Positions 28,229-32,304 of a stretch of 64,000 nucleotides of DNA are shown here, one piece after another (position 1 is the first letter of the stretch; each line of letters starts with the position of its first letter). Source of the DNA: Escherichia coli (GTDB lineage: Bacteria > Pseudomonadota > Gammaproteobacteria > Enterobacterales > Enterobacteriaceae); the NCBI RefSeq assembly GCF_002854065.1, contig NZ_CP024147.1. One strand, given 5' to 3'. A program made the translations under genes and the position numbers. Under the pieces are notes generated by a model. That model searched no databases. It was not told where the DNA came from and worked only from the letters and a program-made list of their open reading frames with translations.

Positions 28229-29404
28229 ATGACAAATCAACCAACGGAAATTGCCATTGTCGGCGGAGGAATGGTCGGCGGCGCACTGGCGCTGGGGCTG
28301 GCACAGCACGGATTTTCGGTAACGGTGATCGAGCACGCAGAACCTGCACCGTTTGTCGCTGATAGCCAACCGGACGTGCGGATCTCGGCGATCAGCGCGG
28401 CTTCGGTATCATTGCTTAAAGGGTTAGGGGTCTGGGATGCAGTACAGGCTATGCGTTGCCATCCTTACCGCAGACTGGAAACGTGGGAGTGGGAAACGGC
28501 GCATGTGGTATTTGACGCAGCCGAATTAAAGTTGCCGTTGCTTGGCTATATGGTAGAAAACACTGTCCTGCAACAGGCATTGTGGCAGGCGCTGGAAGCG
28601 CATCCGAAAGTAACGTTACGTGTGCCAACCTCGCTGATTGCGCTGCATCGCCATGATGATCTTCAGGAGCTGGAGCTGAAAGGCGGTGAAGTGATTCGCG
28701 CGAAGCTGGTGATTGGTGCCGACGGCGCAAATTCGCAGGTGCGGCAGATGGCGGGAATTGGCGTTCATGCATGGCAGTATGCGCAGTCGTGCATGTTGAT
28801 TAGCGTCCAGTGCGAGAACGATCCCGGCGATAGCACCTGGCAGCAATTTACTCCGGACGGACCGCGTGCGTTTCTGCCGTTGTTTGATAACTGGGCATCG
28901 CTGGTGTGGTATGACTCTCCGGCGCGTATTCGCCAGTTGCAGAATATGAATATGGCACAGCTCCAGGCGGAAATCGCGAAGCATTTCCCGTCGCGTCTGG
29001 GTTACGTTACACCGCTTGCCGCTGGTGCATTTCCGCTGACGCGTCGCCATGCGTTGCAGTATGTGCAGCCAGGGCTTGCGCTGGTGGGCGATGCTGCGCA
29101 TACCATCCATCCGCTGGCGGGGCAGGGGGTGAATCTTGGTTATCGTGATGTCGATGCCCTGATTGATGTTCTGGTGAATGCCCGCAGCTACGGCGAAGCG
29201 TGGGCCAGTTATCCTGTCCTCAAGCGTTACCAGATGCGGCGCATGGCGGATAACTTCATTATGCAGAGCGGTATGGATCTGTTTTATGCCGGATTCAGTA
29301 ATAATCTGCCGCCACTGCGTTTTGTGCGTAATCTTGGTTTGATGGCGGCGGAGCGTGCTGGCGTGTTGAAACGTCAGGCGCTGAAATATGCGTTAGGGTT
29401 GTAG
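28229..29404 (+). CDS. ubiF: FAD-dependent ubiquinone biosynthesis hydroxylase
   Basis: FAD-binding fingerprint IVGGGMVGGALALGL; start set at MTNQPTEIAIVGGG (391 aa); the ORF track begins two codons earlier. Confidence 0.9.
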   Translation: MTNQPTEIAIVGGGMVGGALALGLAQHGFSVTVIEHAEPAPFVADSQPDVRISAISAASVSLLKGLGVWDAVQAMRCHPYRRLETWEWETAHVVFDAAELKLPLLGYMVENTVLQQALWQALEAHPKVTLRVPTSLIALHRHDDLQELELKGGEVIRAKLVIGADGANSQVRQMAGIGVHAWQYAQSCMLISVQCENDPGDSTWQQFTPDGPRAFLPLFDNWASLVWYDSPARIRQLQNMNMAQLQAEIAKHFPSRLGYVTPLAAGAFPLTRRHALQYVQPGLALVGDAAHTIHPLAGQGVNLGYRDVDALIDVLVNARSYGEAWASYPVLKRYQMRRMADNFIMQSGMDLFYAGFSNNLPPLRFVRNLGLMAAERAGVLKRQALKYALGL

Positions 29405-29409
29405 CCTTA

Positions 29410-29510
29410 CAACATTGCCGGATGCGTGCCAACCGTAGGTCGGATAAGACGCGGCAGCGTCGCATCCGACATTGAAGGATAAGACGTGTCAACATCGCAT
29501 TCGACATTGA
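29410..29510. repeat. BIME/REP cluster downstream of ubiF
   Basis: Two REP-like units (gccggatgcg ... gtaggtcggataagacgcggcagcgtcgcatccgacat). Confidence 0.6.
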
Positions 29511-29520
29511 ATGAACGCAG

Positions 29521-29553
29521 AAAAGCAAAAAGCTCGCCGAAGCGAGCTTTTTT
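29521..29553. terminator. Bidirectional intrinsic terminator (end of tRNA operon on minus strand; also faces ubiF)
   Basis: Hairpin agctcgc-cgaa-gcgagct flanked by A-run and T-run, immediately 3' of glnX on the minus strand. Confidence 0.7.
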
Positions 29554-29557
29554 AATG

Positions 29558-29632
29558 TGGCTGGGGTACGAGGATTCGAACCTCGGAATGCCGGAATCAG
29601 AATCCGGTGCCTTACCGCTTGGCGATACCCCA
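29558..29632 (-). tRNA. glnX: tRNA-Gln (anticodon CUG)
   Basis: 75-nt reverse-strand cloverleaf sequence, anticodon loop UUCUGAUU, ends CCA. Confidence 0.95.
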
Positions 29633-29669
29633 ACTGGGTGCACTTACAAGGTAAGCGTCTTGAATAAAT

Positions 29670-29744
29670 TGGCTGGGGTACGAGGATTCGAACCTCGGAA
29701 TGCCGGAATCAGAATCCGGTGCCTTACCGCTTGGCGATACCCCA
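29670..29744 (-). tRNA. glnV: tRNA-Gln (anticodon CUG)
   Basis: Exact repeat of the glnX sequence. Confidence 0.95.
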
Positions 29745-29791
29745 ACAAATTGGTTTTGAATTTGCCGAACATATTCGACACATTCAGAATT

Positions 29792-29868
29792 TGGTGGCTA
29801 CGACGGGATTCGAACCTGTGACCCCATCATTATGAGTGATGTGCTCTAACCAACTGAGCTACGTAGCC
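29792..29868 (-). tRNA. metU: tRNA-Met elongator (anticodon CAU)
   Basis: 77-nt sequence whose reverse complement reads GGCUACGUAGCUCAGUUGGUUAGAGCACAUCACUCAUAAUGAUGGGGUCACAGGUUCGAAUCCCGUCGUAGCCACCA. Confidence 0.95.
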
Positions 29869-29883
29869 AGATTGTTTCTTCGA

Positions 29884-29958
29884 TGGCTGGGGTACCTGGA
29901 TTCGAACCAGGGAATGCCGGTATCAAAAACCGGTGCCTTACCGCTTGGCGATACCCCA
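29884..29958 (-). tRNA. glnW: tRNA-Gln (anticodon UUG)
   Basis: 75-nt Gln tRNA with anticodon loop UUUUGAU; same acceptor stem as glnX/glnV. Confidence 0.95.
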
Positions 29959-29992
29959 ATAACCGGGCGGTGAACCGCTTACTCGAAGAAGA

Positions 29993-30067
29993 TGGCTGGG
30001 GTACCTGGATTCGAACCAGGGAATGCCGGTATCAAAAACCGGTGCCTTACCGCTTGGCGATACCCCA
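29993..30067 (-). tRNA. glnU: tRNA-Gln (anticodon UUG)
   Basis: Repeat of the glnW sequence. Confidence 0.95.
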
Positions 30068-30090
30068 TCCGTACAACGCTTTCTGGTGAA

Positions 30091-30175
30091 TGGTGCGGGA
30101 GGCGAGACTTGAACTCGCACACCTTGCGGCGCCAGAACCTAAATCTGGTGCGTCTACCAATTTCGCCACTCCCGC
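30091..30175 (-). tRNA. leuW: tRNA-Leu (anticodon UAG), class II tRNA with long variable arm
   Basis: 85-nt sequence; reverse complement starts GCGGGAGUGGCGAAAUUGG and ends ...CCCGCACCA. Confidence 0.93.
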
Positions 30176-30183
30176 AAAAAAGA

Positions 30184-30260
30184 TGGTGGCTACGACGGGA
30201 TTCGAACCTGTGACCCCATCATTATGAGTGATGTGCTCTAACCAACTGAGCTACGTAGCC
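30184..30260 (-). tRNA. metT: tRNA-Met elongator (anticodon CAU)
   Basis: Identical to the metU sequence; first gene of the operon. Confidence 0.95.
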
Positions 30261-30299
30261 ATCTTTTTTTCGCGATACCTTATCGGCGTTGCGGGGCGC

Positions 30300-30328
30300 A
30301 TTATGCGTATAGAGCCTTGCAGCGTCAA
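30300..30328 (-). promoter_or_regulatory. Sigma70 promoter of the metT tRNA operon with GC-rich discriminator
   Basis: On the minus strand: -35 TTGACG (30323-30328), 17-bp spacer, -10 CATAAT (30300-30305), then GCGCCCCGC discriminator and an A-rich UP-like tract upstream. Confidence 0.6.
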
Positions 30329-30639
30329 CCTCTTTTTCAAGGAAAATTGCTCGAAAGTGACTGTTTGGTTAGGTTGCGAACAGCGTGGCGCTATATTCGT
30401 CAATTATTGTTTACTTTGTGTTTTTTCCCCACCCTACAGCCATTCTTTTGTCATACAGGATGAAATTCGGAATTTAACAATAGTGGTGGGAAATTAATCT
30501 ATGAAATACTGGCCTACAGTAATGAGTTGTCAAACAGTGATGTGGCAAACCCGGAACATTTCCTTACTGCATATCAGAATCAACAAGCACCTCAATAACT
30601 GAAACAGCCCCGGATTTCACCGGGGCTGTTTCGCATTTC

Positions 30640-32304
30640 TTACTTATACGCCGACTGGTGAACACCAACCGCGCGACCAGACGGATCGTCCATTTTCTTG
30701 AACGCTTCATCCCATTCGATCGCTTTAGCGGAAGAACACGCGACGGAAGGACCGCCCGGCACGCACTCAGCGGCGCTCGGAAGCGGGAATAGTTCTTCAA
30801 AGATCTCCCGGTACAGATACGCTTCTTTTGAGGTCGGTGTGTTGTACGGGAAGCGGAAGCGGGCAGTTTCCAGCTGTTGATCAGAAACCTGCTGCGCCGC
30901 CACTTCTTTCAGGGTGTCGATCCAACTGTAACCGACGCCATCGGAGAACTGCTCTTTCTGCCGCCAGGCCACGCTTGCGGGCAGGTATGACTCAAAACAT
31001 TCACGCAGGATGTGTTTTTCCATCTTGCCGTTACCGCACATTTTATCCTGCGGGTTAATGCGCATCGCCACGTCGAGGAATTTCTTGTCGAGGAACGGAA
31101 CGCGTGCTTCCACGCCCCAGGCTGACATCGCTTTGTTGGCACGCGCGCAGTCATACATATGGAGGGCCAGCAGTTTACGCACCGTCTCTTCATGCAGTTC
31201 TTTGGCATTCGGTGCTTTGTGGAAGTAAAGATAACCGCCGAACACTTCATCAGAACCTTCACCGGACAGCACCATTTTAATGCCCATCGCTTTGATCTTA
31301 CGCGACATTAAATACATCGGTGTTGAAGCGCGAATAGTGGTCACATCATAGGTTTCGATGTGGTAAATCACGTCGCGGATGGCGTCCAGACCTTCCTGTA
31401 CAGTGAAGTGAATTTCATGATGCACAGTGCCCAGATGGTTTGCCACTTCCTGGGCTGCTTTCAGATCCGGTGAACCCGGCAGACCTACAGCAAAGGAGTG
31501 TAACTGCGGCCACCAGGCTTCAGAGCGTTCCTGATCTTCCACGCGACGGGCTGCGTATTTCTTGGTGATAGCGGAAATAATTGAGGAATCCAGACCACCA
31601 GAAAGCAGCACACCGTAAGGCACATCAGACATCAGATGGCTTTTAACGGAATCTTCCAGAGCCTGACGCAGCTCGTTTTTGTCGGTGACATTATCTTTCA
31701 CCGCATCGTAGTCGAACCAGTCGCGATGATAATAAGAACGGATTTCGCCGTCCTGACTCCACAAATAGCTCCCCGCCGGGAACTCTTTAATCGTGCGGCA
31801 TACCGGCACGAGGGCTTTCATTTCTGAGGCCACATACAGCTGACCATGTTCGTCATAGCCCATATACAGTGGGATGATCCCCAGATGGTCGCGACCAATC
31901 AGGTAGGCATCTTTTTCGCTGTCGTACAGGGCAAAGGCAAACATGCCCTGCAAGTCGTCGAGAAATTCCGGCCCTTTTTCCTGATACAGCGCGAGGATCA
32001 CTTCACAGTCAGACCCTGTCTGGAACTGATAACGATCGCCGTATTCAGCGCGCAATGCCTGGTGATTGTAGATTTCACCGTTTACCGCCAGTACGTGGGT
32101 TTTTTGTTGGTTGTAGAGAGGTTGCGCCCCCGCGTTAACGTCAACAATTGACAGACGTTCGTGGGCGAGAATGGCGTTATCACTGGCATAAATACCGGAC
32201 CAGTCCGGGCCACGATGACGCATCAGGCGTGACAGCTCGAGTGCTTTCTTACGCAGCTCAACTGCGTCTGTTTTGATATCGAATACGCCAAAAATTGAAC
32301 ACAT
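30640..32304 (-). CDS. asnB: Asparagine synthetase B (glutamine-hydrolysing)
   Basis: Start set at MCSIFGV (N-terminal Cys nucleophile of class II amidotransferases; 554 aa); PP-loop SGGLDSS present. The ORF track extends 78 codons upstream. Confidence 0.93.
   Translation of the reverse strand: MCSIFGVFDIKTDAVELRKKALELSRLMRHRGPDWSGIYASDNAILAHERLSIVDVNAGAQPLYNQQKTHVLAVNGEIYNHQALRAEYGDRYQFQTGSDCEVILALYQEKGPEFLDDLQGMFAFALYDSEKDAYLIGRDHLGIIPLYMGYDEHGQLYVASEMKALVPVCRTIKEFPAGSYLWSQDGEIRSYYHRDWFDYDAVKDNVTDKNELRQALEDSVKSHLMSDVPYGVLLSGGLDSSIISAITKKYAARRVEDQERSEAWWPQLHSFAVGLPGSPDLKAAQEVANHLGTVHHEIHFTVQEGLDAIRDVIYHIETYDVTTIRASTPMYLMSRKIKAMGIKMVLSGEGSDEVFGGYLYFHKAPNAKELHEETVRKLLALHMYDCARANKAMSAWGVEARVPFLDKKFLDVAMRINPQDKMCGNGKMEKHILRECFESYLPASVAWRQKEQFSDGVGYSWIDTLKEVAAQQVSDQQLETARFRFPYNTPTSKEAYLYREIFEELFPLPSAAECVPGGPSVACSSAKAIEWDEAFKKMDDPSGRAVGVHQSAYK

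Follow-up and report, generated by a model that had tools for sequence, protein, structure and literature searches.

The closest described system to the locus considered here is the metT operon of Escherichia coli, which in K-12 MG1655 comprises the genes glnX, glnV, metU, glnW, glnU, leuW and metT (b0664-b0673); one of them, glnV, is the classic supE suppressor locus. Mohanty and Kushner (PMC2241853) report that a full-length seven-tRNA transcript is detected on northern blots, that its terminator is removed primarily by RNase E, and that the tRNAs are separated afterwards by RNase P, with RNase E also helping to separate the last three, metU, glnV and glnX. Kime et al. (PMC3985628) add that an in vitro precursor is cleaved efficiently by RNase E and attribute this to direct entry that is independent of a 5′-monophosphate. 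A systematic deletion study classed the metT unit as essential because every gene with a CAU (elongator), UAG, UUG or CUG anticodon lies in it (PMC11480407). The operon matters, and is essential, because it carries every tRNA-Gln, elongator tRNA-Met and tRNA-Leu(UAG) gene of E. coli.

Here, we analyzed a 64,000-nucleotide stretch of E. coli DNA (contig NZ_CP024147.1; hereafter the window), for which an earlier note had annotated such an operon. With a probability of about 97%, the locus is the E. coli metT operon, expressed as one transcript from a sigma-70 promoter of the stable-RNA type, ending at a terminator after glnX and processed by RNase E and RNase P. This operon is already known in detail and its content is textbook material; therefore, its rediscovery adds nothing new, and the annotation, although correct, is ordinary.

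Results

Seven tRNA genes between ubiF and asnB

[quoted passage not shown] In the direction of transcription it contains metT, an elongator tRNA-Met(CAU) gene (30260-30184); leuW, for tRNA-Leu(UAG) (30175-30091); glnU, for tRNA-Gln(UUG) (30067-29993), and the identical glnW (29958-29884); metU, an elongator tRNA-Met(CAU) gene identical to metT (29868-29792); and glnV, for tRNA-Gln(CUG) (29744-29670), followed by the identical glnX (29632-29558). All seven lie on the minus strand, and each assignment draws on ARAGORN, the Rfam model and the K-12 annotation. ARAGORN read the anticodons, in this order, as cat, tag, ttg, ttg, cat, ctg and ctg, and reported no tRNA genes besides these seven in the 64-kb window. 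The 3′ CCA is genomically encoded in all of them. The order of the genes and their position between ubiF and asnB, as described in the earlier note, were thus confirmed, and its span for the operon, 29521-30330, accurately runs from the terminator up to the -35 hexamer. No gene failed in the covariance-model scan: RF00005 scored all seven at 57.6-71.1 bits, compared with a gathering score of 29 bits, and each match spanned the full model (positions 1-71).

Identity is complete within each Gln pair (75/75 for glnU and glnW, 75/75 for glnV and glnX) and between metT and metU (77/77), and the Gln(UUG) and Gln(CUG) isoacceptors share 68 of 75 positions. These Gln copies had been described as near-identical tandem repeats that could be mistaken for a repeat array; the description was apt, and our repeat search did group the Gln genes into one family of four direct repeats, spaced by 112, 214 and 109 nt. 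Four units of about 82 nt recurring at spacings of 109-214 nt might suggest a CRISPR-like or REP-like array with no tRNA function, and ARAGORN assigns Met to any CAT anticodon, so that the CAU genes might encode initiator tRNA or tRNA-Ile2 and not elongator tRNA-Met. However, every repeat unit scores 57-71 bits under the tRNA covariance model, and we rejected a repeat array in place of genes since none of the units falls short of a full tRNA score. The CAU genes match K-12 metT and metU, annotated as tRNA-Met(CAU), at every base, and their acceptor end is paired (G1-C72), whereas initiator tRNA has a 1-72 mismatch. Furthermore, metT and metU are handled as elongator genes in published work (PMC11480407, PMC6265465). 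The probability of either alternative is virtually negligible, and we retained the assignment of seven tRNA genes with two for elongator tRNA-Met.

The segment 29300-30600 was matched in 5424 of 5426 complete E. coli genomes, and the genome of strain 100416 is 100% identical to the window across it. According to the annotation of the strain 100416 record, the asnB CDS lies upstream on the minus strand (30640-32304), and ubiF, the convergent downstream neighbor, lies on the plus strand (28229-29404), the latter also being located by tblastn synteny. The asnB gene ends with its own terminator hairpin (30600-30633, minus strand; terminator scan, fold of -27.3 kcal/mol, z = -6.2), which insulates the tRNA promoter from read-through out of asnB.

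The MG1655 metT operon agrees with the window in its seven genes, in their order and in the flanking asnB and ubiF, and by alignment all tRNAs, the promoter hexamers, the discriminator and the terminator are identical in the window. Between the asnB and ubiF coding regions, the two differ at five single bases, which is strain-level variation. The comparison of MG1655 with the window gave a leader A-run and a metT-leuW T-run that are each shorter by one base, one substitution in the metU-glnV spacer, and one substitution plus one 1-nt indel in the upstream region; a few further substitutions lie within ubiF.

A conserved promoter of the stable-RNA type

The promoter elements named in the earlier note, the hexamers TTGACG and CATAAT and the discriminator, were all recovered. 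On the minus strand, the promoter scan placed the -35 hexamer TTGACG at 30328-30323 and the -10 hexamer CATAAT, 17 nt past it, at 30305-30300, and the GC-rich discriminator GCGCCCCGC directly follows CATAAT at 30299-30291. This was the single sigma-70-like site within 29000-31000, and it matches 10 of the 12 hexamer positions. One consensus match in this 2-kb region, compared with 2.0 expected, is by itself not above chance; therefore, it is conservation and published work that support the promoter.

Searching one genome per species for exact patterns yielded 120 Enterobacterales loci with the Met-Leu junction, and the promoter comparison covered the 116 Enterobacterales loci having enough upstream sequence. 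TTGACG was retained in 112 of these 116, CATAAT in 114/116 and the GCGCCCCGC discriminator in 110/116. The 17-nt spacing of the hexamers was kept in 116/116, its length being fixed while its sequence drifts freely among loci. In 115/116 loci, the 12 nt preceding the -35 hexamer included a run of at least five A. The conserved A/T-rich, UP-element-like region of the window adjoins the -35 hexamer on the minus strand (30331-30350, with an A-tract at 30337-30333) and presumably resembles a proximal UP subsite. Farther upstream, the conservation profile of 115 distinct Enterobacterales upstream sequences revealed a conserved block at 30362-30400 (minus strand), approximately 70-108 nt upstream of the inferred start, which is a candidate activator site of the FIS type.

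Judging from the position of the -10 hexamer, transcription probably starts at about 30292-30293, 7-8 nt past it, which corresponds to approximately 697166 in K-12. This start agrees with the in vitro metT precursor, which begins at CGCAACGCCG (PMC3985628), and with the leader-plus-metT species of approximately 125 nt that PMC2241853 reports for RNase P mutants.

The promoter had also been labeled stringent-type and growth-rate-regulated. We consider this label plausible because of the signature that the promoter carries, in which an A-tract precedes a near-consensus -35 hexamer, the spacer is 17 nt long and the discriminator is GC-rich; the combination of sigma-70 hexamers with a GC-rich discriminator, as expected of a stable-RNA promoter, is present. 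GC-rich discriminators have been tied to stringent and supercoiling control of stable-RNA promoters (PMC8422995, citing Travers 1980). The searchable literature yielded no direct measurement of how the metT promoter responds to ppGpp/DksA, FIS or growth rate.

A terminator probably shared with ubiF

Scanning, folding, conservation and a published probe all point to an intrinsic terminator at 29517-29552, with features on both strands. Its hairpin, AAAAAGCTCGC-TTCG-GCGAGCTTTTT (29552-29527), begins 5 nt past glnX and is followed on the minus strand by GCTTTTCTGC; read on the plus strand, the GC stem runs into TTTTTT. The terminator scan recognized it as an intrinsic terminator with 11 pairs, a loop of 4 and a T-rich tail. 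In PMC2241853, this hairpin is the Rho-independent terminator of the metT operon and is used by the tRNA transcript, and a terminator probe picks up the full-length transcript in RNase E mutants.

The earlier note described the terminator as shared and bidirectional; that it would serve both the tRNA operon and ubiF appears well supported by comparison of sequences. The opposite strand offers a U-tract and the genes converge, as expected of a bidirectional terminator: by tblastn synteny, ubiF was convergent in 89/89 loci with ubiF detected downstream, and asnB lay upstream on the same strand in the 78 of these that allowed both sides to be judged. Among 103 loci of other species, the hairpin was flanked by both an A-rich 5′ and a T-rich 3′ sequence in 68, and by the T-rich flank only in 11. 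The stem itself varies in a compensatory manner in other genera (GCTCGC/GCGAGC, GCCCGC/GCGGGC, GCCTGC/GCAGGC). The A-rich 5′ flank is conserved although the tRNA operon does not need it, which speaks for the hairpin being used from the ubiF side, too.

An opposing view is that the hairpin ends the tRNA operon only and that ubiF transcripts end or are stabilized elsewhere, for example at REP elements. In the window, two tandem 35-nt REP-like palindromic units, which we take to be REP elements, occupy 29442-29511 (both strands; repeat search), and they are stable when folded on the ubiF strand. Owing to these two intervening units, 122 nt lie between the E. coli ubiF stop (29404) and the hairpin. 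In addition, the simple terminator scan listed the hairpin on the minus strand only, and we found no experiments on ubiF 3′ ends in the literature, nor anything specific on a bidirectional ubiF/glnX terminator. However, the scan skipped the plus-strand site because the A:T pairs are absorbed into the stem and leave no T-tail; when the GC stem is considered alone, six T come next on the plus strand, and both directions give an equally stable fold (-17.1 kcal/mol on the plus strand and -17.9 kcal/mol, z = -3.95, on the minus strand). The two conserved flanks, one of them an A-tract for which the tRNA operon has no need, likewise speak against termination in one direction only. So does the convergence of ubiF in all 89 detected loci, many of which have no REP in between. 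Among the downstream flanks inspected by eye, without a tally, REP-like sequence was seen only in Escherichia loci, and in many other genera approximately 90 nt separate the ubiF stop from the last tRNA and no REP can be seen in this interval. Thus, a terminator serving the tRNA operon alone seems unlikely, and we favor a shared one.

A possible helix between the leader and the metT-leuW spacer

Conservation, complementarity and folding delimit a 5′ leader of approximately 32 nt (30261-30292, minus strand). Its positions 30262-30269, eight paired positions, are complementary to the metT-leuW spacer TCTTTTTT (30176-30183, minus strand). More broadly, the leader end CGCGAAAAAAAGAT is complementary, in 15 of 17 positions, to the spacer with the first leuW bases, TCTTTTTTGCGGG, and in the minimum-free-energy fold this pairing lengthens the metT acceptor stem. 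Between the window and K-12, one A of the leader run and one T of the spacer run have changed together.

We assessed covariation in an ungapped alignment of 77 distinct sequences, in which eight pairs join leader positions -2 to -9 with spacer positions +1 to +8, using as controls 500 shuffles, which ignore shared ancestry, and a slid register. Standard pairs filled 83.0% of cells, compared with 76.3% after shuffling and at most 67.9% in a slid register, so that approximately 17% of helix cells were unpaired. Changes on both sides were observed at 7 of the 8 pairs (shuffle mean 4.1, with the observed count reached in 4/500 shuffles) and in 34 cells (12.3 after shuffling, 38 at the +1 slid register), and the covariation score was 0.207 (0.114 shuffled, at most 0.155 slid). 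Except for the pair count, every measure gave an observed value that 0/500 shuffles reached. In the +1 slide, both counts of both-sided changes were as high as observed, and the register control therefore separates the helix only by the percentage paired and the covariation score. Individual compensatory changes include G:C to C:G in Tatumella and matching T:A interruptions in Edwardsiella and Hafnia. The lengths of the leader A-run and the spacer T-run are modestly correlated (Spearman 0.38). In a permutation of duplex energies between cognate and non-cognate leader-spacer combinations, 0/5000 permutations reached the observed value; as this procedure ignores phylogeny, we relied on the pair counts and the slid-register control. 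Altogether, a leader-spacer helix around metT is probable on comparative grounds.

The consequences of such a helix are more speculative. The last nine or so leader nucleotides (the A-run and GA) could pair with the spacer (TC and the T-run), and the resulting conserved helix would prolong the metT acceptor stem in the primary transcript and could hide the 5′ RNase P site of metT until RNase P has acted at leuW and the spacer has been trimmed away by exonucleases, which would impose a 3′-to-5′ order of processing. In PMC2241853, the 5′ leader is retained by every intermediate that builds up in RNase P mutants, and the helix, if real, would explain this. The first 18 or so nucleotides of the leader, GCAACGCCGAU(G)AAGGU, are almost invariant across loci and contain a small hairpin, GCC-GAUAA-GGU, in which other complementary pairs replace GCC/GGU in the most divergent loci, four in number; this segment may work at the RNA level and not just as part of the promoter. 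We regard this combined proposal as tentative and, on balance, somewhat doubtful. No mention of a leader-spacer helix was found in the accessible portions of the published papers on metT-operon processing, and it is possibly a new detail at an otherwise known locus.

One transcription unit and a variable array

The sequence holds one promoter-like site and one terminator, consistent with a single transcript. The metT and metU repeat units, which match at 94% over 93 nt, are alike for 16 nt upstream of the tRNA, and PMC2241853 describes a metU-glnV-glnX species in RNase E mutants; both could be read as traces of an old duplication that left separate promoters for two transcription units, metT-leuW-glnU-glnW and metU-glnV-glnX. 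However, the promoter scan found no sigma-70-like sites inside the array, the glnW-metU spacer measures only 15 nt, and the same text ascribes the 5′ end of the metU-glnV-glnX species to RNase P. The full-length transcript on the northern blots refutes an internal second promoter for practical purposes, and two separate units are very improbable. We therefore kept a single unit that begins at the metT promoter.

A survey of 97 complete arrays revealed that the composition of the array varies. The seven-gene order Met-Leu-Gln-Gln-Met-Gln-Gln was present in 44/97, a count to which the window itself and two reference loci of E. coli contribute; the second Gln(CUG) gene was absent in 23/97, the second Gln(UUG) gene was absent in 8/97, and the remaining arrays were other copy-number variants. 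Unequal recombination between identical copies would be expected to produce such copy-number variation. The 16 nt shared upstream of metT and metU indicate that part of the leader was duplicated, and they would be consistent with a Met-(Leu)-Gln-Gln unit having been duplicated long ago. In a small fraction of E. coli genomes labeled complete, the arrays were implausibly short or absent; strains CEA224S and MC1061 (NZ_CP166080.1, NZ_CP195014.1) are examples of shortened arrays. We did not accept these shortened arrays as real polymorphism; since the extreme ones would lack essential tRNAs (PMC11480407), they are judged to be probable assembly collapse. Identical tandem copies thus appear to confuse genome assemblies.

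Discussion

Overall, the gene identities and order, the flanks, the promoter hexamers, the discriminator and the tandem Gln repeats given in the earlier note all held, and its annotation of the metT operon, made from sequence only, is accurate. No evidence speaks against the identification. We infer regulation by ppGpp or growth rate, the exact start and the use of the terminator by ubiF.

The course of expression can be outlined as follows. Sigma-70 RNA polymerase would start approximately 7 nt past CATAAT, near 30292, from a promoter that appears to be built like those of rRNA and tRNA genes, and transcription stops at the hairpin and U-tract just past glnX. RNase E removes the terminator stem-loop first, RNase P then cuts the 5′ end of each tRNA and separates the seven units, and exonucleases trim the 3′ ends to the encoded CCA. 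The conserved leader-spacer helix, if true, is a possible determinant of the order in which RNase P acts.

When compared with other stable-RNA promoters, the metT promoter resembles those of tyrT, hisR/argX and rrn P1 in its strong -35 hexamer and in the GC-rich discriminator that separates the -10 hexamer from the start, and perhaps also in its A/T-rich upstream region and conserved upstream block. The tyrT promoter carries the same GCGCCCCGC, followed by ...CCGATAAGG. In contrast, the rrn P1 spacer is 16 nt long, whereas that of the metT promoter is 17 nt. With respect to processing, the metT operon is similar to valV-valW, leuQPV and secG-leuU in that RNase P, and not RNase E, separates the tRNAs and that the terminator stem-loop must be removed first, as described in PMC2241853. 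It differs from these three operons in that RNase E cuts downstream of metU as well.

Results and discussion

The metT operon of this Escherichia coli contig, a minus-strand array of seven tRNA genes (29558-30260), is preceded by a 5' leader. On the minus strand, the end of this leader, an A-run followed by GA (30262-30269), can pair with the TC and T-run of the metT-leuW spacer (30176-30183). The paired positions covary in a set of 77 distinct sequences from Enterobacterales, in support of a conserved helix that would lengthen the acceptor stem of metT. Relative to the K-12 reference locus, the window carries coordinated 1-nt changes in the leader A-run and the spacer T-run.

Further upstream, a block at 30362-30400, approximately 70-108 nt 5' of the inferred transcription start, is conserved among 115 Enterobacterales sequences and may represent an activator site of the FIS type. 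Beyond it, 7 nt past the stop codon of asnB, lies a strong hairpin (30600-30633; -27.3 kcal/mol, z = -6.2), which is likely the asnB terminator. This predicted terminator likely guards the tRNA promoter against read-through. On the other side of the operon, a repeat search identified two tandem 35-nt REP-like palindromic units (29442-29511) between the ubiF stop codon and the terminator that follows glnX. Among the downstream flanks displayed, REP-like sequence was confined to Escherichia loci, as judged by eye and uncounted, and in many non-Escherichia genera approximately 90 nt separate the end of ubiF from the last tRNA gene. Elsewhere in the window, a full-length match to the sroC sRNA (RF00369; 21008-21170, minus strand, 168 bits) was found, the sole further Rfam family in the 64 kb besides tRNA.

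The number of Gln and Met genes in the operon differs between Enterobacterales (loci L003-L122), with variants of six or eight genes, some with an added Lys tRNA and others with a repeated Met-Leu-Gln unit. This variation in Gln and Met copy number fits unequal recombination among the identical gene copies. Within E. coli, 28 of 5426 assemblies labeled complete hold five or fewer tRNAs in the array. That of strain CEA224S (NZ_CP166080.1, 2750-2770) has none, its junction falling exactly at the 5' end of metT and the 3' end of glnX, and that of MC1061 (NZ_CP195014.1) retains one Met and one Gln gene. Since the latter two are spaced by 47 nt, as are metU and glnV, the remaining Gln gene is probably of the CUG type. 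Because the missing tRNAs are essential, such extreme shortening probably reflects assembly collapse of identical repeats.

Conservation is also pronounced at the start of the leader, where the first ~18 nt (GCAACGCCGATAAGGT; 30275-30292, minus strand) vary almost not at all across 116 loci, so that conservation reaches well past the discriminator. A small GCC-GAUAA-GGU hairpin in the early leader shows complementary replacements in those loci that diverge most. A motif resembling GCAACGCCGATAAGGT is present in tyrT, another stable-RNA promoter of E. coli.
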